Positions 14,262 through 21,220 of a DNA stretch of 64,000 bases are shown here, piece after piece (the first letter of the stretch is position 1; each line of letters opens with the position of its first letter). Both the position numbers and the translations under genes were made by a program. The notes under the pieces were generated by a model, which was not told the origin of the DNA, did no database searches, and saw only the letters and a list, made by a program, of their open reading frames with translations. The stretch lies in assembly GCA_041690135.1 (NCBI GenBank), contig JAWLHY010000001.1:960001-1024000 (forward strand). Direction: 5' to 3'. This stretch comes from Armatimonadota bacterium (lineage in GTDB: Bacteria > Armatimonadota > SYMT01).

Positions 14262-14582
14262 GTGCCAGACTCACCTCCATCAGCGCGACGGAAGCGGACT
14301 GGCACAGGTTCCGCCACGGGGCTCGTGACTGTAGGAGATGTGACGCCGTTCCATTCCGAAGGGAACGAAGTTGATCCCGTTTGGCTCAGCGGGAACACTC
14401 TTGTTCCAGGACAGCCACGGGCCTGCAGGACGCGATCAGGAGCAGTCCTGCGGAACGCTACGGTACACCCGGCGAAGTTAGGGCGAGACGTTCCCTACGG
14501 GTGCCGTACACAGAGACACGCAAGTCGGCCCCGCCGAGAACCTCTGGATTGCATGGCACCCCCGAGACCGGAGTCTCGGGAG
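14262..14582 (-). ncRNA. Candidate structured non-coding RNA or 3' UTR element (unassigned)
   Basis: Nested long-range stems plus four branch hairpins; mismatches resolve to G-U on the minus strand; c(UCCG)g and c(UUCG)g loops on the minus strand. Confidence 0.5.
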
Positions 14583-14593
14583 TTGCTAAACCG

Positions 14594-14929
14594 TTACTCG
14601 CTCTTCACGCTTCCCTCGAAGTCCGAGTGCTTCGTAATCGCCTCGGCCAACTCCTGGGGATTGGTCTTCGCCGGATCGTATTCGACCTCCACCGTCTGGG
14701 TCTTCACGTCCGCCTTCATCTTCTTAAATCCATCGACTCTGACCAGAGCCGCTTCCGCGCGGGGCGGTCAGCCGGCCGGTCAATGCATGCCCTTCGCATT
14801 CAACACCGCGGTCTTCATCCCGGGCTCGGGCGCGATCGGCTCCTGCTCGGCGGTCGGAGCACACCCCACGAACGTCCCGGAGACGACGGCGCCGGCCAGA
14901 AGGGCGAAGGCTCGCCTCGTCAGTACCAT
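14594..14929 (-). CDS. HMA (MerP/CopZ-like) domain Tat-lipoprotein with two in-frame TGA codons at the metal-binding Cys positions (putative UxxxU selenoprotein)
   Basis: Manual translation: MVLTRRAFALLAGAVVSGTFVGCAPTAEQEPIAPEPGMKTAVLNAKGMH*PAG*PPRAEAALVRVDGFKKMKADVKTQTVEVEYDPAKTNPQELAEAITKHSDFEGSVKSE-TAA; SD GAGGAG; TGA at 14780-14782 and 14768-14770. Confidence 0.85.
14734..14762 (-). promoter_or_regulatory. Candidate bacterial SECIS elements
   Basis: CCGC-GCGGAA-GCGG (loop 21 nt after first UGA) and CGGCUCU-GGUC-AGAGUCG (loop 23 nt after second UGA). Confidence 0.55.
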
Positions 14930-15007
14930 CCGCTTCTCCTCGGTAGTCGGAAAGCGGACCCATTCCTTGCCGCCTTCCCTTCCCTTATCCTACGCGCATC
15001 GAGGCAA

Positions 15008-16462
15008 TTAATCACCTGTCGTTCCACTATCGATTGCCTCTATACCTACCGCGGGGAATTCCACGCGGAAGGTGCTGCCTTTTCCCGGGCGGCTCTCGCA
15101 CGAGATGGCCCCCTCATGGGCTTCCACCGCCCAGCGGGTGATGCTGAGCCCCAGGCCCGTGCCTCCGGCGGCGCGGGCGCGGCCCTTGTCCACGCGATAG
15201 AACCGGTCGAAAATGTGCGGCAGGTGTTCGGCCGGGATGCCGATGCCGGTATCCCGTACCTCGAGGATCGCTTTGGATTCGTGCTTCCGCAGCGAGAGGG
15301 TCACGCAGCCCCCTTCCGGCGTGTACTTGATCCCGTTGCTGAGGAGGTTGGTGACCACCTGGTTCAGCCAGAGCGCATCGCCGGCCACGGTAGCGTCTTC
15401 CACCTCGGCCAAGTCCAGCCGCACTCCGTGGCGGGCTGCGAGGGGCTCCAGGCTCTCCATCGCCACCAGCACCAGGCCGGGAAGCTCCACGGGCTCCTTG
15501 CGGATCAACTCCACCCCGGCGTCGGTGCGGGCCAGCAGCAGCAGGCTATCGACGATCTCCGACATCCGCTCCGCCGATTCGAGGATGCTGCCGAGGGAGC
15601 GCCGGTACGCGGCGGCGTCCTGCTCCTCCATCAACGCGACCTCGGCTTCACCGCGGATCGCCGTCAGGGGAGTTTTTAATTCGTGGGAGGCATCCGCGCT
15701 GAACTGGCGGACCTGCTGGAAGCTGCGGTCGAGGCGGGCGATCATCTGGTCGAAGGCCTGCGCCAGGCGACCGATTTCGTCTTCGGGTCCCTCGTGCTGA
15801 AGGCGCCGCTGCAAGTTGGTACTCTGGATATCGAGGGCGGTGCGGGTGAGGCTGTCGACCCGCCGGAGCGCGCGACCCACGACGAGCCAGTTGCCCCCCA
15901 GCGCCAGCAGGAAGACGCCCGGGGTGAGGCCGATCAGGATCCACCGCGCTCGCTGGAGGGCCGCCTCCACCCCTTCTAGTGAGGTGCCGGCCTGAACGAG
16001 GTAGGGGATGCGCGACCCCATGCGCACCGGCACGGTGGCGATGCGGACCGGATGCTCACCCAGCCCGTGGACCGTTTCCAGGTGCGCCCGTCCCGCCAGC
16101 CCCGCCCGCAGCGCGGGCGCGAGCACCGGCAGCGGGTTGGTCTGCAGTCCGTCGGACTTCTCGCGGATGTTCCCCTGGGGGTCCACCACCTGGATGTAGC
16201 GTCCCCAGGTGCGCAGGTCGTTCGCAAGAAACTGCGGAAGAGGGGCGGCCATTCCGGCGTCGTGGGCGGTCTCCAGGCGGTACAGCGTCGTCGCCATCTG
16301 GCGGGCAGTGGTGTCGGCATGCTCCAGAAGTGCCTGATCCGCGCGAGAGTAAAGTACGCGGAAAAGGAGGGCGTAGGTGAGCCCTCCCAGCCCCAGCAGC
16401 GTGAGGCCCATCAGGCCCGCATGCCACAGGGCCAGCTGCGCGCGCAAACCGCCGATCTTCAC
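15008..16462 (-). CDS. Heavy-metal-sensor-type (CusS/CzcS-like) histidine kinase
   Basis: Two TM segments, HAMP (EDEIGRLAQAFDQM), FSADASHELKTPL H-box, NLLSNGIKY, DTGIGI, IFDRFYRVD, GTGLGL. Confidence 0.92.
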   Translation of the reverse strand: MKIGGLRAQLALWHAGLMGLTLLGLGGLTYALLFRVLYSRADQALLEHADTTARQMATTLYRLETAHDAGMAAPLPQFLANDLRTWGRYIQVVDPQGNIREKSDGLQTNPLPVLAPALRAGLAGRAHLETVHGLGEHPVRIATVPVRMGSRIPYLVQAGTSLEGVEAALQRARWILIGLTPGVFLLALGGNWLVVGRALRRVDSLTRTALDIQSTNLQRRLQHEGPEDEIGRLAQAFDQMIARLDRSFQQVRQFSADASHELKTPLTAIRGEAEVALMEEQDAAAYRRSLGSILESAERMSEIVDSLLLLARTDAGVELIRKEPVELPGLVLVAMESLEPLAARHGVRLDLAEVEDATVAGDALWLNQVVTNLLSNGIKYTPEGGCVTLSLRKHESKAILEVRDTGIGIPAEHLPHIFDRFYRVDKGRARAAGGTGLGLSITRWAVEAHEGAISCESRPGKGSTFRVEFPAVGIEAIDSGTTGD

Positions 16463-17136
16463 GCCGGCTCTTCCCGCAAGACGTAGCCCACGCCGCGGAT
16501 GGTGTGCAGGAGCTTGCGCCCCGCGGCGGGATCGATCTTCTTCCGGAGAAAGTTCATGTACACTTCGAGCACGTTCGACTGCGTTTCGAAGTCGTAGCCC
16601 CAGATGTTCGACAGCAGCTCCTCGCGGGTCAGGGTTTTCTCCGGGAACCGCATCATGTACTCCAGCAGCGCATACTCCTTGTTGGTGAGCTCGATCCGCT
16701 TTCCGTTCCGCGTGACGGTGCGGGAAACGGGATCTAGCACCAATCCCGCGTATTCCAGCGCGGGTACCCGCACCGCCGTGGCCCGGCGCAGCAGCGCCCG
16801 TAGCCGGGCCAGGAGCTCGCCGAACGCGAACGGCTTCGGCAGGTAGTCGTCGCAGCCGGCGTCCAGACCCTCGATCCGGTCCTCCGTGCTGCCGAGGGCC
16901 GTGAGAGCCAGCACGGGGACTTCCATCCGCATACGGCGGATCTCCCGCACCACGTCCAGGCCGCCGATCCCGGGCAGCATCAGGTCCAGTACCACTGCGT
17001 CGTAGCTGGTCGCTTTCAGGCGTTCCAGCGCGGCTTCTCCACTCGCTGCGACTTCCGCTTCGAAGTCGGACTGCTCCAGGCCGCGCCGGATCACGTCCGA
17101 GACCTTTTCCTCGTCCTCCACCACCAGGATCCGCAT
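16459..17136 (-). CDS. OmpR-family (CusR/CzcR-like) response regulator
   Basis: MRILVVEDE, LDLMLP, GCDDYLPKPF, LTNKEYALLEY, NVLEVY..FLRKKID, TIRGVGY. Confidence 0.95.
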   Translation of the reverse strand: MRILVVEDEEKVSDVIRRGLEQSDFEAEVAASGEAALERLKATSYDAVVLDLMLPGIGGLDVVREIRRMRMEVPVLALTALGSTEDRIEGLDAGCDDYLPKPFAFGELLARLRALLRRATAVRVPALEYAGLVLDPVSRTVTRNGKRIELTNKEYALLEYMMRFPEKTLTREELLSNIWGYDFETQSNVLEVYMNFLRKKIDPAAGRKLLHTIRGVGYVLREEPA

Positions 17137-17138
17137 GG

Positions 17139-18875
17139 TTACTGTCCCTTCCCCTCTCCCTCGATGAGGACGACTTCCCGGTCCGGCTGCGGACCGGGGA
17201 AACTCTCGACCGCGCCGCTGGGCCAGCGCACCTCGATCTCTTCCACAGTGGTGTGTTGGCCCAGTCCGAAGGTGAGCCGCAAATCGGACTGCGAAAGATA
17301 GCTGGAGCCGCCGCGGACCATCCGGTACTGGTCGGTGCCCCCGCTCCGCACCCTTACGCCGGCTCCGATCGCGCTCCGGTTGCCGCGCCGTCCTTCTAAC
17401 CGCAGTCGCAGCCAGTGGTGGGCCGGACGCCCGGCCTGCCGCAGCAGCGCCGGCGGTCCGCCGTTCGCGCTCAAGAGCACGTCCAGGTCGCCGTCGTTGT
17501 CGTAATCTCCATAGGCGGCGCCGCGGGCCACGCGCGGCTCACGCAGGGCGCCGATCTCGTCCCCCACCGGCTCGAACCGGCCCTCCCCCAGGCCCCGGAA
17601 GAACAGGCCCGGCTGTGCGTGGGTAACCCCACTGCTGCGGACCTCGATATCGTCCTGGATGTGCCCGTTCGCCACCAGAATATCCTGGTTCCCGTCCAGG
17701 TCGGCGTCGAAGAAAAAAGCACCGAACCCGAGGAACTGCTGGCTGGGGGTGCCGATGCCGGCCCGTGCCGCCACGTCGGTGAAGAGCCCCGAGGGGTCTC
17801 GCCGGTAGAGGCTCAACTGCTCGCCCGTGAAGTTGGTGATCAGGACGCCATCCCGGCCGGCGTTCTCGTAGTCCGCGACGTCGATGCCCATCCCCGCTTT
17901 GGCGATCCCGCCTTCGGCCACCGCCATCCCCGCCTGTACCGCTACTTCCTTGAAAGTAGCGCGCTCGCCCTGGTTGTGGAAGAGGAAGTTGGGCACCATG
18001 TCGTTGCTCACCGCCAGGTCCACCCAGCCGTCCCGGTCGAAATCGCAGAGCGCCACTCCCAGGGCTTTCGAGTTCGCCAGGCCGATCCCCACCCGCGCGG
18101 ACACGTCTTCGAACCGGCCTCTCCGATTGCGGAAGAGCTGACACGGCTCCCCCGAATAGTTGTCCGGCCGCGCGTAGGACTTCCGGACCCCGTCCAGCGA
18201 AGCGAACACGTCCGACTCCGGGGTCCACTTTACATAATGACATACGAACAGGTCGAGGCGGCCGTCCCGATCGTAGTCCAGAAGGGCCGCGCTGGTCGGC
18301 CAGCCAGGCGTAGCAAGCCCCCAGCGCTTCGTGACGTCCTCGAACCGCCGGCCGTTCACATTTCGGAGCAGGCGGGACCCACCCAGCGCCGTGAGGACCA
18401 GGTCGCAGAAGCCGTCGTTGTCTACGTCTCCCGCGGTGACTCCCATTCCGTAGATTCCGACCGGCATGTTGTATTCCCGGGAGACATCCGCAAAGGTCCC
18501 GTCCTTCCGGTTCCGGTAGAGGCGACACCTTCCGGGAGGCAACGGGCTGCCGGGCCAGGGCGTCGAGTCGACCAGCACCAGGTCGAGCCAGCCATCGTTA
18601 TCGACATCCATCCACGCGCAGCCCGCGCCCATCGTCTCCGGCATCCACTTCCGGCCTTCCGCCCCCGTGGTGTGCCGGAACGTGATACCCGCCGAAGCGG
18701 TCACGTCCTCGAACCGCACCGGCGCCCGCTGCGCCGCCGGCTCCGTCTTCGGCACAGGCCGAGCAGGACCGCAGCCTACAGCAAGAAGCGCTATCGCCGG
18801 AAGCGCTCCCCAAATTGCAAATTGCAATTTGCAATTTGCAACTGACAATAGCTCTCTCTTGCAGTTGCCGCTCAT
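17139..18875 (-). CDS. CRTAC1-family FG-GAP repeat lipoprotein with ASPIC/UnbV C-terminal domain
   Basis: LAVGC lipobox; FEDVT..AGI, repeated D.DNDG..DL motifs; NRSAIGA...GSSYLSQS...FGLG..WPSG. Confidence 0.92.
   Translation of the reverse strand: MSGNCKRELLSVANCKLQFAIWGALPAIALLAVGCGPARPVPKTEPAAQRAPVRFEDVTASAGITFRHTTGAEGRKWMPETMGAGCAWMDVDNDGWLDLVLVDSTPWPGSPLPPGRCRLYRNRKDGTFADVSREYNMPVGIYGMGVTAGDVDNDGFCDLVLTALGGSRLLRNVNGRRFEDVTKRWGLATPGWPTSAALLDYDRDGRLDLFVCHYVKWTPESDVFASLDGVRKSYARPDNYSGEPCQLFRNRRGRFEDVSARVGIGLANSKALGVALCDFDRDGWVDLAVSNDMVPNFLFHNQGERATFKEVAVQAGMAVAEGGIAKAGMGIDVADYENAGRDGVLITNFTGEQLSLYRRDPSGLFTDVAARAGIGTPSQQFLGFGAFFFDADLDGNQDILVANGHIQDDIEVRSSGVTHAQPGLFFRGLGEGRFEPVGDEIGALREPRVARGAAYGDYDNDGDLDVLLSANGGPPALLRQAGRPAHHWLRLRLEGRRGNRSAIGAGVRVRSGGTDQYRMVRGGSSYLSQSDLRLTFGLGQHTTVEEIEVRWPSGAVESFPGPQPDREVVLIEGEGKGQ
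18811..18838. repeat. Perfect 28-bp palindrome of heptamers inside the CRTAC1 5' region
   Basis: CAAATTG CAAATTG CAATTTG CAATTTG. Confidence 0.85.
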
Positions 18876-21220
18876 GGCACCATCACTAACTCATGCACAT
18901 GCAGAGGCCGTTCTTCCGTCGCTTCCGGACCGGATGCCACACCCTGCTTCAGGGAAGGTGCGCCGCTATCCGCCAGGAGCCGGTACATCGCCTCTTCGCG
19001 CTGCGCCGCCGTCAACCGGTTCAGGCGCTGCTGGCAGAGCATCAGGTTGTAGTGCGCCGAAACGTCGAGCGGGTCGACGTCGAGCATCGCTTCGAACTCC
19101 CGCGCCGCTTCCTGATGCTTCAGGAGCGCCATTAGCGTGAGACCCAGCTCGAAGCGTAGCTGCCGGTCTCGTGGAAAGCGCTTCGCCAGTACTCGCAACT
19201 CGCGCGCGGCCGCGTCCGGCTGCCCCATCCGGCGAAGGACGGCCGCCTCCCAGGCCCGAGCACGCAGCGTGGTGGGTACTCCGGCGTGGGTGCTCTCGAC
19301 TCGGGTTCCGGCTGCGCGCCGGAACGCGTCTCGGGCCGCCAGCAGGTCTCCCTCTCGCAGATAGACTTGCCCCAGGGCCAGTTCCGTCTCCCCGGTTTGC
19401 GCTTCACTGTCCCGTGCCCGGAGCAGGTACCGGATCGCCTCGGGGTAGGCCTTCACCGCTGCGAGAGCCATGCCGTAACACCGCAAGCGCTCGCTCGCCG
19501 CAGAGGTTTCTGCGTCGAACGAATGCAGTTCGGCGCTTGTCTCGGCCAAGACCTCCGGCGCCCCTGCCGTCTCCCCCGCCCACCGGGAGAATTCGGGCCG
19601 CCGTCGCCGGAGAAGCCGCACGCGGGCTCTCCCTCCATTCGCCGGAATCTCGGGGAGGCGGTAGCGGGCCAGGTCGCTTTCTCCCGCCGGGATCCTCCGC
19701 CACTCCCGCACCGCCACCATCTCATCCAGGTTGCCGTGCTCAACCCACTTCCCCCGGCGATCGAGGGCCACCAGGCGGTAGACGTGCGCCTCCGGATCGA
19801 GGGCGCCGTCCGGCCGGATTGCGCCACTCCGGGCCCGCAGTCGCCCTTCCCGATCCCTCACCTCCACTTCCAGCCATGCCTCGTGGAGATCCGGCATGCC
19901 ATAGGGGAAGTCATGCCCGACCCCGCTGTTGTGCACTACGACATCCAGGATTCCACCCAGCCGATGGTCTTCCTTCTCCCAGTCCGGCGAGCTTCCGGTA
20001 TCCCGCGGAACAGGCGGGCTGGGGCGCAGAAAGAGGTCGAGGCGCAGCGGCGCCGGGCGCCCGGCGATCTTCTGGGTTGTACCGTGGGGATTGTGACAAC
20101 CGGTGCAACTTCGCGCTGCCGCGCCTTCGCCCGCAGCGAACAGCGAGGTCCCGGAGAACCGGCTCGCCTGCCAGGCCCGGTATTCATCCGGACCCTCCAT
20201 CCACCGGAACTGGTTCTGCGGCAGGTTCCAGTGTTTCCGGTGACAGCTCCCGCAGAACTCGGCGGAGCGGTGCAAGGCCGGGCGCAGCATTTGTGTGGCA
20301 TGGCTGCGTGGTCGCAGGCGGGTGTCCAGGTCGCTCCAGAACGCCCGCAGCCCCCCGGCCTTTCGCTGGCTCGCGGCGCCGTCCAGGACCAGCGCCCCGC
20401 TTCCGAAGCCGGCGTGGACCTCCTCTGCGGTGTGGCAGGCAGCACACCCCACGGATTGCCGGGCCGCATCCGGCTCGTGGCAACCCCGGCACCAGCCTGC
20501 TGCCTCGCTGCCCTTGCGCCGCTCGAAATCGGCCAGGGTCGCGCGGTACGCGGGGTTCCGCATACCGGCGGCGTGTCCCCGGGTGGCGTGTTCCTCGCCT
20601 ACTCCCGGGTGGCAGCCGGCCTGCTCGCAGCTCGCCTCGGGGACCCCCGTCCGTCGCAACGCGGTCGGGAATCCCGCTTCGCCGGCCTGCTCCGCGGTGG
20701 TTGCGGTGAGGAAGCGGTAACAGGCGACCGCATCATAACCCGGCGGTTGCCAACCGGACGTCCGGCGCTCCCCGGCTAGCGAGGCGAATGCCGGGCTCAG
20801 GCAAGCCAGCAGGCACGCCAGGCCGACCGCATGGCGCGCCGCGGGTGTTCTTGCGTGGGTGAACAACCATCCCGCCACGACCAGCAGCACTCCGCCGCCG
20901 GCAAACGCGTGGGCCAACAGCACACCCCCTCGCGCCGCTCCGGGTGGCAGCGGCCAGAGACTACCCATCCCGAAGAGAAGGGTGAGCGCACTCCCGATGA
21001 CGGCGAGGGATCTTGCCCGCAAGCCGAGGCGTGGAACTGTCAGAACCACCACCGCCAGGAACCCCAGGGCGTGGAGGAGTAGGAGGGCCAGGCTCCCGGT
21101 CCCGGCGACGCGATCCCCCACTCCGGCTAGCATCGATGCCGTCGCACCCGCCAGTGCGCAGCAGGCTGCGACCGGGAAACGGATGGGCCGGAGCTTTTTC
21201 GGGGTGTTTGGGAGATCCAC
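18872..21220 (-). CDS. Membrane-anchored multiheme c-type cytochrome with C-terminal TPR repeats
   Basis: N-terminal TM helices; CRGCH, CAACH, CGSCH, CTGCH plus CEQAGCH; GHDFPYG motif; TPR region ending AHYNLMLC. Confidence 0.88.
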   Translation of the reverse strand: MDLPNTPKKLRPIRFPVAACCALAGATASMLAGVGDRVAGTGSLALLLLHALGFLAVVVLTVPRLGLRARSLAVIGSALTLLFGMGSLWPLPPGAARGGVLLAHAFAGGGVLLVVAGWLFTHARTPAARHAVGLACLLACLSPAFASLAGERRTSGWQPPGYDAVACYRFLTATTAEQAGEAGFPTALRRTGVPEASCEQAGCHPGVGEEHATRGHAAGMRNPAYRATLADFERRKGSEAAGWCRGCHEPDAARQSVGCAACHTAEEVHAGFGSGALVLDGAASQRKAGGLRAFWSDLDTRLRPRSHATQMLRPALHRSAEFCGSCHRKHWNLPQNQFRWMEGPDEYRAWQASRFSGTSLFAAGEGAAARSCTGCHNPHGTTQKIAGRPAPLRLDLFLRPSPPVPRDTGSSPDWEKEDHRLGGILDVVVHNSGVGHDFPYGMPDLHEAWLEVEVRDREGRLRARSGAIRPDGALDPEAHVYRLVALDRRGKWVEHGNLDEMVAVREWRRIPAGESDLARYRLPEIPANGGRARVRLLRRRRPEFSRWAGETAGAPEVLAETSAELHSFDAETSAASERLRCYGMALAAVKAYPEAIRYLLRARDSEAQTGETELALGQVYLREGDLLAARDAFRRAAGTRVESTHAGVPTTLRARAWEAAVLRRMGQPDAAARELRVLAKRFPRDRQLRFELGLTLMALLKHQEAAREFEAMLDVDPLDVSAHYNLMLCQQRLNRLTAAQREEAMYRLLADSGAPSLKQGVASGPEATEERPLHVHELVMVP

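Follow-up and report, generated by a model that had tools for sequence, protein, structure and literature searches.

A candidate exported HMA-domain selenoprotein with selenocysteine at both metal-ligand positions in an Armatimonadota genome

Introduction

In the genome of an Armatimonadota bacterium, a short minus-strand reading frame is interrupted by two TGA codons four residues apart, raising the question of whether it is the remnant of a broken gene or a selenoprotein gene, and what its product would do. An earlier note on this DNA had proposed a hidden gene for an exported metal-binding lipoprotein of the HMA type, with both ligand cysteines replaced by selenocysteine (Sec). Here we describe the frame, its encoded fold, its neighbourhood and its relatives within and beyond the 64,000-nt stretch that was analysed (the window). 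Taken as a whole, the locus is likely to be an intact, translated selenoprotein gene for an exported di-Sec HMA protein resembling MerP and the metallochaperones.

Reading frame and signals

The features of the gene are as follows.

14594-14929, minus strand: putative HMA selenoprotein gene, 111 codons plus TAA, with Sec at residues 50 and 54
14929-14927, minus strand: start codon ATG, with an SD-like GAGGAG (14936-14941, read directly) six nt 5' of it
14861-14929, minus strand: predicted signal peptide, residues 1-23, with TRRAF near the N-terminus and ending in a lipobox-like FVGC (14861-14872)
14606-14818, minus strand: HMA domain, residues about 38-108, ferredoxin-like beta-alpha-beta-beta-alpha-beta fold in the AF2 model
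14780-14782, minus strand: first in-frame TGA, residue 50, at the first HMA ligand Cys position, putatively read as Sec
14768-14770, minus strand: second in-frame TGA, residue 54, at the second HMA ligand Cys position and the start of helix 1, putatively read as Sec
14596-14594, minus strand: stop codon TAA, the end of the frame
14556-14586, minus strand: G+C-rich hairpin, 8 nt past the TAA, without a U tract

Re-reading of the minus strand from ATG 14929, with its GAGGAG, two TGA codons and TAA, returned the frame of 111 residues that had been proposed. The coding part without the stop (14597-14929) contains exactly two in-frame TGA codons and no other stop or frameshift, and no further in-frame ATG, GTG or TTG lies upstream of the ATG. 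The GC3 of the frame is 0.82, and that of the neighbouring genes 0.84 and 0.86. In the mechanical ORF list the frame appears as no more than two pieces, 14780-14929 (49 aa) and 14594-14719 (41 aa); the gene as a whole is absent, as the earlier note had pointed out.

The FVGC motif (residues 20-23) follows a hydrophobic stretch, and a lipobox-like [x][x][GAS]C in the same setting recurs in orthologs (LVGC, LLGC, LSGC, GAGC, AVGC, LAGC and others); a rough regular expression, which makes a few false calls and misses a few, detects it in 26 of 57 sequences. Of the proposal that this is a Tat-exported lipoprotein, the lipobox-like Cys of the window protein and its relatives favours the second half. 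TRRAF is indeed present, but export by the Tat route is not supported, since no Tat-signal profile is found among the Pfam or NCBIfam matches of the window protein at E ≤ 1 and the RR motif is not kept in relatives, being missing from the orthologs in genomes G005, G004 and G293. The product is predicted to be exported and, in the source genome, probably lipid-anchored at Cys23.

The hairpin past the stop codon (-23.9 kcal/mol, z -4.70) is matched by none of 200 shuffles and probably marks the end of the transcription unit; it goes uncalled by the consensus terminator scan because it lacks a T run.

HMA domain and ligand spacing

The read-through protein matches the Pfam HMA family (PF00403) with 39.2 bits (cut-off 24.8) over residues 43-100. 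Its AF2 model, with a pLDDT of 81.9 and values of 89-97 over residues 31-110, places strands at residues 39-46, 68-74, 79-84 and 105-108 and helices at 54-62 and 91-101, which is the HMA topology. Of its 46 PDB matches at E ≤ 0.001, all among the matches listed are HMA domains, the best being the mercury-binding protein MerP (1osd_A; TM 0.88 on the target, rmsd 1.4 Å, E 5.5e-8, 32% identity), and among single-domain chains MerP likewise ranks first by profile (70.8 bits). The HMA identity first read from the motif is thus borne out by domain profile and predicted structure.

When the protein is aligned by profile to HMA domains of solved structure, the two TGA codons fall on both ligand Cys, with one extra residue between them. 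The window motif is GMH-U-PAG-U-P and the family motif GM-x-U-P-x-G-[U/C]-P, giving a ligand spacing of C-P-x-G-C (CxxxC) against the canonical C-x-x-C; in place of the canonical GMxCxxC spacing, HMMER opens a one-residue gap. The statement that the TGA codons fall exactly on the ligand Cys therefore holds for both sites only with this insertion. The product would be a single HMA domain with two selenolate metal ligands in an enlarged loop, GMH-U-P-A-G-U-P.

Neighbourhood and inferred function

A two-component system lies directly upstream of the HMA gene.

15008-17136, minus strand: two-component system, same strand as the HMA gene
16459-17136, minus strand: response regulator by Pfam domains, best NCBIfam match TIGR01387 (226.3 bits, cut-off 279.2)
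15008-16462, minus strand: histidine kinase by Pfam domains, best NCBIfam match TIGR01386 (266.2 bits, cut-off 292.55)

TIGR01386 describes heavy-metal sensor kinases and TIGR01387 heavy-metal response regulators, both matches falling below the cut-off. The kinase and the HMA gene are separated by 78 nt, in which a scan gave no sigma-70-like promoter, although the promoter type of this organism may differ. The same kinase-then-HMA order is present in G005, G001 and the metagenome contig L151, and a two-component system adjoins the HMA gene in three of the six gene-holding genomes of the window's own family; none was found beside it in G002 or G003, and the contig from G004 is not long enough to show either case. 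The HMA gene is probably expressed with, or under, the upstream heavy-metal-type two-component system. Its other neighbours in the window are an FG-GAP/ASPIC gene and a TPR gene.

In relatives, the Sec-containing HMA domain is fused to the metal transporter MerT in G007 and in the metagenome contig L133 (with Sec at both sites in L133), the gene stands beside a MerT::HMA gene in G293, and it lies near a MerT-like match in the contig L127. Further neighbours in relatives include ArsR, ECF sigma and anti-sigma genes. A classical mer operon or pathway is not supported in the source genome (97% complete), which gives no MerT match and no MerA above the cut-off.

The function that best fits the fold and these associations is a periplasmic MerP-like or metallochaperone role, in which the protein would capture soft metal ions (Cu(I), Ag(I), Hg(II) or similar) by two-coordinate selenium ligation. 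The captured metal would then be sequestered or handed to a membrane partner.

The main alternative for the function is that the protein is a real selenoprotein whose U-x-x-x-U pair alternates between the diselenide and diselenol states, serving for instance as a periplasmic reductant or an oxidant sensor, without a part in metal trafficking. Under the oxidising conditions of the periplasm, the selenol pair could exist as a diselenide. The closest match by structure is MerP in its oxidised, disulfide form, the enlarged C-P-x-G-C loop differs from the canonical metal site, and a CMD (AhpD-like) gene adjoins the ortholog in G293. Review tables, as far as available, also list most known bacterial selenoproteins as redox proteins with UxxC or CxxU motifs. 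Against this, the fold is that of an HMA domain and not thioredoxin-like, the solved relatives among the matches listed are all named as metal-binding domains, metallochaperones or metal-transport proteins, the Sec domain is fused to or placed beside MerT in relatives, and the neighbouring regulators resemble metal sensors. We consider a purely redox role improbable and retain metal capture as the preferred function of the exported HMA protein.

Distribution of Sec and Cys in relatives

In the 401 phylum genomes that were compared, a clear group of 16 high-scoring places (at least 76 bits) stands out, below which the next best (70.6 bits) are P-type ATPase domains. Two TGA codons are present at eight of these places (spread over seven genomes), one at seven and none at one. 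The first site is TGA at 15 of the 16, and its column was read directly as U in 13 orthologs, whose translations carry GM-x-U-P-x-G-U-P or the same motif ending in G-C-P. The second site is divided equally between TGA (8) and a Cys codon (8), the kind of TGA/Cys alternation that the earlier note had proposed to look for. The G001 ortholog has Cys at both sites (C-Q-G-S-C, in MNCQGSC), while one family place with a single TGA (G385:C48) did not match the motif regular expression used for reading the orthologs.

A metagenome scan with a 48-nt degenerate motif recovered 54 stretches. Three are chance matches, and the other 51 are HMA domains that score 45-151 bits with the family profile; across 47 distinct sequences, the second site reads U in 30 cases and C in 17. 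Proteins with Cys at both sites and the motif MTCP[VTA]GC are present in protein databases (P0004, P0005, P0006 and P0019). The M-x-C-x-x-x-C motif occurs in at least one copy in 33 of the best 150 representative matches to the family profile, a set that is of no use for counting Cys forms because multi-HMA-domain proteins dominate it.

Over the 52 codons past the second TGA, comparison with four orthologs gave dN/dS values of 0.15-0.42 (dN and dS of 0.137/0.912, 0.277/0.998, 0.392/1.273 and 0.53/1.262), indicating purifying selection.

Hairpins downstream of the UGA codons

The two UGA codons are only 12 nt apart, and no single hairpin can therefore be equidistant from both. Decoding may be directed by hairpins within 60 nt past the first UGA, where two candidates are found.

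14740-14782, minus strand: hairpin i, candidate SECIS for the first UGA, 43 nt, with UGACC at its 5' base paired with GGUCA
14734-14751, minus strand: hairpin ii, candidate SECIS for the second UGA, with a 6-7 bp stem and a GGUC loop

Hairpin i has a folding energy of -22.7 kcal/mol (z -1.73). Hairpin ii, whose stem begins 20 nt past the second UGA, has one of -9.0 kcal/mol (z -2.71), and three of 200 shuffles fold as well. Paired cells for hairpin i make up 80.8% on 13 genome sequences (22-48% in slid controls) and 66.2% on 57 sequences (28-44%), and those for hairpin ii 75.1% on 57 sequences (26-56%), counts that are inflated by the location in conserved coding sequence and that come from the same sequences from which the hairpins were derived. 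The covariation of hairpin ii is 0.321 against 0.159 in shuffles, with none of 500 as high and 33 cells changed on both sides. Because hairpin ii overlaps the 3' arm of hairpin i, the two cannot coexist.

More general searches at this site returned little: an Rfam scan of 14550-14950 at E ≤ 10 gave two chance-level matches and no SECIS family, RNAalifold on 13 sequences predicted four pairs only, and the 91-nt stretch round the TGA codons folds no better than shuffles (z 0.10). Some metagenome clades show striking hairpins at alignment columns 30-44 and 50-66, which lack support across the family as a whole, with 47.2% of cells paired against 32-52% in slid controls. In the selD gene of the source genome, which itself carries one in-frame TGA, an 8-bp hairpin with a GUG loop begins 28 nt past the UGA.

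One way in which two overlapping hairpins might serve two neighbouring codons is a relay, which we put forward tentatively and think rather unlikely to be correct in this form. Hairpin i, with the first UGA at its 5' base, would direct the first Sec; the ribosome would then melt the 5' arm of hairpin i, and the freed 3' arm would refold into hairpin ii, which would direct the second Sec, amounting to a ribosome-driven SECIS switch. If true, this would permit a di-selenolate metal site in an exported protein.

The short spacing could also mean that the first UGA is read as Sec while the second mostly terminates, giving a 53-residue lipopeptide, with the full-length protein made only when selenium is plentiful; the second UGA would then work as a switch that depends on selenium. 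The distance to any one hairpin differs between the two codons, and roughly half of the relatives have Cys at the second site, the first being Sec in nearly all of them. We give this possibility little chance: most of the HMA fold is encoded past the second UGA, in sequence under purifying selection, and a separate covarying hairpin follows this codon. Decoding of both codons in the full-length selenoprotein is the reading carried forward here.

Sec machinery and authenticity of the TGA codons

The source genome encodes the components of Sec synthesis and insertion that the earlier note had named for checking, namely selA (481.1 bits), selB (383.6 bits), selD (369.6 bits) and a tRNA-Sec with anticodon tca (UCA) at C1:1152265-1152363. 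Both UGA codons of the HMA gene would accordingly be within reach of the genome's own SelA, SelB, SelD and tRNA-Sec, by which they are probably decoded as Sec. The use of TGA as a genome-wide sense codon was set aside, with several orthologs ending their own frames at TGA and the genome having a dedicated tRNA-Sec.

There is a very small chance that the locus is a pseudogene, once coding for a Cys-type HMA lipoprotein and now decaying with two nonsense mutations. The frame does contain two in-frame stops under the standard code, gene callers skip it, and databases hold only C-terminal tails of such proteins, of 54-55 residues (e.g. P0064 and P0066); as a single query, the read-through protein has no match at E ≤ 1e-5 in a collection of 5.8 billion protein clusters. 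Decay is contradicted by the recurrence of TGA at both codons in other genomes and of U at the second site in most of the distinct metagenome sequences, by a frame that is otherwise free of lesions and under constraint past the TGA codons, and by the full Sec machinery of the genome. Together with the covarying downstream hairpins, the machinery, the TGA/Cys pattern and the purifying selection support, at the level of sequence, a real selenoprotein gene with Sec recoding at both ligand positions, in line with the earlier judgement that recoding was likelier than two independent nonsense mutations.

The chance that the TGA codons are in truth TGC or TGT, altered by an error of sequencing or assembly, is negligible; no point in favour was found, TGA occupies the same columns in dozens of independent assemblies, and independent contigs from other public runs that span the two codons show no change there (X2 record 9, covering 14654-14804, has 0 differences, and X1 record 2, covering 14650-14902, lists none at 14768-14782). 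This speaks to the concern over sequencing error that the earlier note had raised. The public DNA runs that hold the window sequence do so in small shares only (0.10-0.13), and no RNA run is listed among them.

Significance

The family appears to be a widespread and apparently undescribed branch of exported HMA selenoproteins, a kind of protein that is itself known. Because both ligand codons are TGA, members of this branch are missing from or truncated in public protein sets, and a profile for GM-x-U-P-x-G-[U/C]-P would recover the missed genes. An extracytoplasmic two-selenolate site should bind soft metals, Hg, Cu, Ag and Au among them, more tightly than a dithiolate and exchange them faster, with a bearing on metal resistance, metal sensing and bioremediation. 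With the first ligand almost always Sec and the second either Sec or Cys, the family offers a natural series for assessing the contribution of each selenium. Sec codons 12 nt apart, followed by overlapping covarying hairpins, likewise make a compact natural system for studying SelB and SECIS function at closely spaced UGA codons.

Comparison with known systems

Cys-only HMA domains with M-x-C-x-x-x-C (e.g. MMCQKNC and MSCAKNC) have the same enlarged ligand loop as the window protein; they occur mostly within multi-domain proteins, and the P-x-G-[U/C]-P signature is absent from them. The CopZ/Atx1 chaperones and the HMA domains of P-type ATPases share its fold and ligand positions, but are cytoplasmic and have CxxC spacing, and the window protein scores 33-34 bits against CopZ models with cut-offs of 91-95.

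MerP (TIGR02052; PDB 1osd and 1afi), the best structural and single-domain profile match, is likewise an exported single HMA domain, against whose model the window protein scores 41.3 bits (cut-off 92.55). The ligands of MerP are Cys in a CxxC motif, whereas those of the window protein are putatively Sec with CxxxC spacing, and MerP is not a lipoprotein, while the window protein has the lipobox-like FVGC. The mer operon context (merT, merA and a regulator) is not found in the source genome, and some relatives have MerT as a fusion partner or neighbour.

Fusions of this last type recall two families of MerT fusion proteins, the MerT/CopZ fusion-like heavy-metal transport selenoproteins (NF045683) and MerTP (NF033556), the likeness lying in the relatives G007 and L133, which are MerT::HMA proteins with U-P-V-G-[C/U]-P. 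The G007 fusion falls below both cut-offs (79.5 of 375 bits for NF045683 and 121.1 of 180 for NF033556). Against NF045683 (cut-off 375), the window protein, in which a MerT part is absent, scores 23.9 bits.

The closest counterpart in kind is the metal-binding (seleno)protein family NF041115, also a small single HMA domain in which both ligand Cys can be Sec and, like the window protein, predicted by bioinformatics only. The spacing in NF041115 is the canonical two residues (UxxU), against three in the window family, and the window family, unlike NF041115, has a conserved Pro after each ligand (P-x-G, then P or A). A member named by NCBI (P0023) has GMTCGGC and an N-terminal SICDLC that is absent from the window protein. 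The window protein scores 38.4 bits and its relatives 38-63 bits against a cut-off of 95, and no NCBIfam HMA selenoprotein model reaches its cut-off with the window protein.

Judging from the accessible portions of the literature and NCBI models, previous work already covers HMA selenoproteins with a Sec pair (UxxU, NF041115) as well as MerT-related selenoproteins, and review tables include a Sec-for-Cys replacement at the first ligand (UxxC) of an E1-E2 cation-transporting ATPase. The kind of selenoprotein therefore counts as known, and the possible novelty raised in the earlier note has to be narrowed. The U-x-x-x-U HMA subfamily was not found in the accessible text of the literature searched, which included PMC13188914, PMC9312934, PMC2398784, PMC12013277 and bioRxiv 10.1101/2022.07.06.499078. 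Within that literature, what appears to be undescribed is the U-x-x-x-U spacing and the subfamily that carries it, set beside a known group of two-Sec HMA proteins with U-x-x-U.

Gene and reading frame

On the minus strand of the window, an ATG at 14929, preceded by a GAGGAG box, opens a frame of 111 codons that ends at a TAA (14596-14594) and is interrupted solely by TGA codons at 14782-14780 and 14770-14768 (residues 50 and 54). The mechanical ORF list has just two flanking fragments in its place, so that frame and list together bear out the earlier note, which had described a gene absent from the ORF track with two in-frame TGAs. The GAGGAG box it named is also found, and so is the FVGC it read as a lipobox, at the end of the hydrophobic signal sequence with which the read-through protein begins. 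This protein matches the heavy-metal-associated (HMA) domain family (PF00403, 39.2 bits, cut-off 24.8). GC3 is 0.82 in the HMA frame, 0.84 and 0.86 in the upstream kinase and regulator genes, and 0.63-0.69 in the plus-strand ORFs overlapping the gene.

Predicted selenocysteine at the ligand positions

The earlier note was right in its observation and in its main inference, recoding to selenocysteine (Sec, U) at both ligand sites, as judged from the TGA/Cys pattern of orthologs, the Sec machinery and dN/dS. The window genome (9.1 Mb, 97% complete) encodes the full machinery, and all four sel components proposed for checking are present:

C1:1149693-1152363 (cluster): selA, 481 bits
C1:1149693-1152363 (same cluster): selD, 370 bits, in-frame TGA in the context KCGGUASK
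C1:1149693-1152363 (same cluster): tRNA-Sec
Contig C8, apart from this cluster: selB, 384 bits

The cluster lies ∼175 kb from the window, and selD itself encodes a selenoprotein (TGA at C1:1150907).

Against four orthologs, the codons that follow the second TGA give dN/dS values of 0.15, 0.28, 0.31 and 0.42, and that part is therefore translated. Decay into a pseudogene is excluded for practical purposes by these values (0.15-0.42) and by the retention of TGA in orthologs and metagenomes. Sequencing error, which the earlier note wished to see checked, is likewise excluded for practical purposes, since contigs from other public runs carry both TGA codons unchanged.

Orthologs and metagenomic relatives

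An initial survey of 41 related genomes found two-TGA orthologs in four other genomes of the window's family (48-68% identity), one-TGA forms at greater distance, and a Cys/Cys form in genome G001. When 401 genomes of the phylum were searched with a profile built from nine orthologs, 16 places scoring ≥76 bits stood clearly apart from the next matches (≤70.6 bits), which were HMA domains of 700-900-residue P-type ATPases. The 16 places carry two TGAs (8), one (7) or none (1). The motif in 13 translated orthologs is GM-x-U-P-x-G-U-P or GM-x-U-P-x-[GS]-C-[PA], while G001 reads C-Q-G-S-C. The alternation that the earlier note suggested looking for is thus seen as TGA or Cys at the second site and as Cys at both in G001; no Cys-first/Sec-second form occurs among the family places read directly, which do not include contig C48 of genome G385.

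Metagenomes were scanned with a 48-nt degenerate motif from the ortholog alignment, which matched 13/13 known Sec forms. Of the 54 stretches it matched, three are chance matches and 51 encode HMA domains, with family-profile scores of 45-151 bits. Among 47 distinct sequences, 30 have Sec and 17 have Cys as the second ligand; the pattern presets the first ligand as TGA, and these counts inform the second only. Cys/Cys proteins with a C-P-x-G-C motif are present in protein databases (P0004, P0005, P0006 and P0019).

At metagenome loci L122, L131 and L139/L149, a double-Sec HMA domain is followed by a C-terminal extension of ∼100-150 residues without assigned function (e.g. ...YAQFDGPYGRVVAQAAVKK...). 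A more distant exported HMA lipoprotein with one Sec (L025, G016:C373) has the canonical spacing (GMT-U-GS-C) and is matched best by NF041115 (62.7 bits, cut-off 95).

Fold, ligand loop and export

An AlphaFold2 model built with a 41-sequence alignment (pLDDT 81.9) has HMA topology, with residue 50 placed in loop 1 and residue 54 where helix 1 begins. Among solved structures, MerP of Ralstonia metallidurans matches best (1osd_A, E 5.5e-8, rmsd 1.4 Å, 32% identity), ahead of the HMA domains of copper ATPases and of CopZ; profile comparison likewise ranks MerP first among single-domain chains (70.8 bits). In every solved relative the alignment needs a gap of one residue between the ligands, which makes the site an enlarged loop of the C-x-x-x-C type. 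The placement of the TGAs on the two ligand cysteines thus holds for the positions but not for CxxC spacing. The loop has Pro-x-Gly inside and Pro or Ala following. A three-residue spacer also occurs in Cys-only HMA domains, in 33 of the best 150 representative matches.

A signal-like hydrophobic segment opens nearly every family member; many have a lipobox-like Cys, some have ordinary signal peptides, and in some the domain is joined to MerT or to an N-terminal domain of no assigned kind. From these N-termini and fusions, the HMA domain is predicted to be extracytoplasmic across the whole family. Tat export, as earlier claimed, is not supported by profile matches or by the orthologs' sequences.

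Candidate SECIS structures

Two overlapping hairpins can form downstream of the first UGA, and are mutually exclusive because they share nucleotides:

14740-14782, minus strand: hairpin i, UGACC of the first UGA at the 5' base pairing with GGUCA
14734-14751, minus strand: hairpin ii, 6-7 bp stem beginning 20 nt past the second UGA, GGUC loop

Hairpin i folds in the window at -22.7 kcal/mol (z -1.73); 80.8% of cells pair in 13 genome sequences (22-48% in slid controls) and 66.2% in 57 distinct sequences (28-44%). Hairpin ii folds at -9.0 kcal/mol (z -2.71), with 75.1% of cells pairing in the 57 sequences (26-56% in slid controls) and a covariation score of 0.321 against 0.159 for shuffles (0/500 as high). 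Changes on both sides are seen in 33 of its cells (e.g. CCCU/AGGG, CUCU/AGAG and CCUU/AAGG), several arising via synonymous changes. RNAalifold alone found little structure in the region of the HMA gene, no Rfam family matched it, a 91-nt stretch around the TGAs folds no better than shuffles, and both hairpins were derived from the same coding sequences used to score pairing; a SECIS after the UGAs is therefore graded as likely, with hairpins i and ii as candidates for either UGA. The selD of the same genome has a comparable layout, an 8-bp hairpin with a GUG loop beginning 28 nt after its UGA. With UGAs 12 nt apart, how both are decoded becomes a specific, testable question.

Striking covariation also marks a 6-bp hairpin in one clade of the family (metagenome loci L099, L105, L106, L110, L117, L120, L125 and L126), as in CUGUAC/GUACAG, CCGUAC/GUACGG and CCUUGC/GCAAGG. 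Its loop is 5 nt long (CGNGN), it lies ∼31 nt past the second ligand codon, and the family as a whole does not share it.

Gene neighbourhoods

Upstream of the HMA gene on the same strand, at a distance of 78 nt, are the genes of a histidine kinase and of an OmpR-type regulator; downstream of the HMA gene is a very stable hairpin (-23.9 kcal/mol, z -4.70). Among NCBIfam models, the kinase and regulator fit best to heavy-metal sensor kinase and heavy-metal response regulator, both somewhat below cut-off. Further upstream are:

17139-21220, minus strand: FG-GAP/ASPIC-UnbV protein (578 aa) and TPR protein (782 aa), upstream of the two-component system

The order TPR, FG-GAP/ASPIC, regulator, kinase, HMA recurs in genomes G005 and G001, and kinase-then-HMA on metagenome contig L151; the window order was not found in G002 or G003. 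In G005, a second HMA-like lipoprotein gene (L040, G005:C16:38340-38621, minus strand) lies between the kinase gene and the double-Sec ortholog. It reads GLKAESERVE in place of GM-x-U-P-x-G-U, with both ligand positions lost, and may be a degenerate paralog or a non-metal-binding partner.

In genome G007 and metagenome locus L133, the Sec domain forms the C-terminus of a fusion with MerT, with Sec at both ligands in L133. At both loci (L079, G007:C165, and L133) the genes for an ArsR-family regulator, a CopZ-N-terminal-domain protein (NF047645, 136 bits, cut-off 100) and MerT::HMA lie in an operon-like row. In G293, the Sec domain lies behind an ECF sigma/anti-sigma pair, beside a MerT::HMA gene. 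Such a pair also precedes a Sec-HMA fused to an unassigned domain on G385-like contigs L107, L129 and L152, the anti-sigma alone being seen on the short contig L147. The N-terminal domain of these fusions (∼190 residues; also in L053/L083, G385:C23) has no Pfam or NCBIfam match and contains CLGC and a Cys/His-rich stretch. The window genome (97% complete) has no MerT match and no MerA over cut-off. The recurring theme of these neighbourhoods is, by predicted gene function, envelope metal handling under dedicated regulators.

Comparison with known HMA selenoproteins

The large protein collection lacks the full read-through protein and has C-terminal tails alone. P0064 and P0066, 54-55-residue 'proteins' starting at an internal Met just past the second TGA (MEKALVRVDG...), are truncated calls of Sec-form members and illustrate the annotation gap.

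In the parts of the literature covered, predicted HMA-type selenoproteins include a MerP-like protein from an ocean sampling study (PMC2398784), a two-Sec UxxU 'putative mercuric reductase / metal-binding protein' (NF041115; PMC9312934, PMC13188914), a UxxC cation ATPase and MerT-related proteins (bioRxiv 10.1101/2022.07.06.499078). Metal-binding HMA selenoproteins with two Sec are thus already known from predictions, and the novelty earlier supposed does not extend to the kind. It appears to stand for the spacing and subfamily: no description of UxxxU or of the window subfamily was found in the covered literature on selenoproteins of the MerP, CopZ or heavy-metal-associated type. The window protein and its relatives score well under the cut-offs of all the corresponding models, and one NF041115 member named by NCBI differs from the family in its canonical spacing and N-terminus. 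What appears to be new is the exported U-P-x-G-[U/C]-P subfamily, which is widespread in metagenomes.
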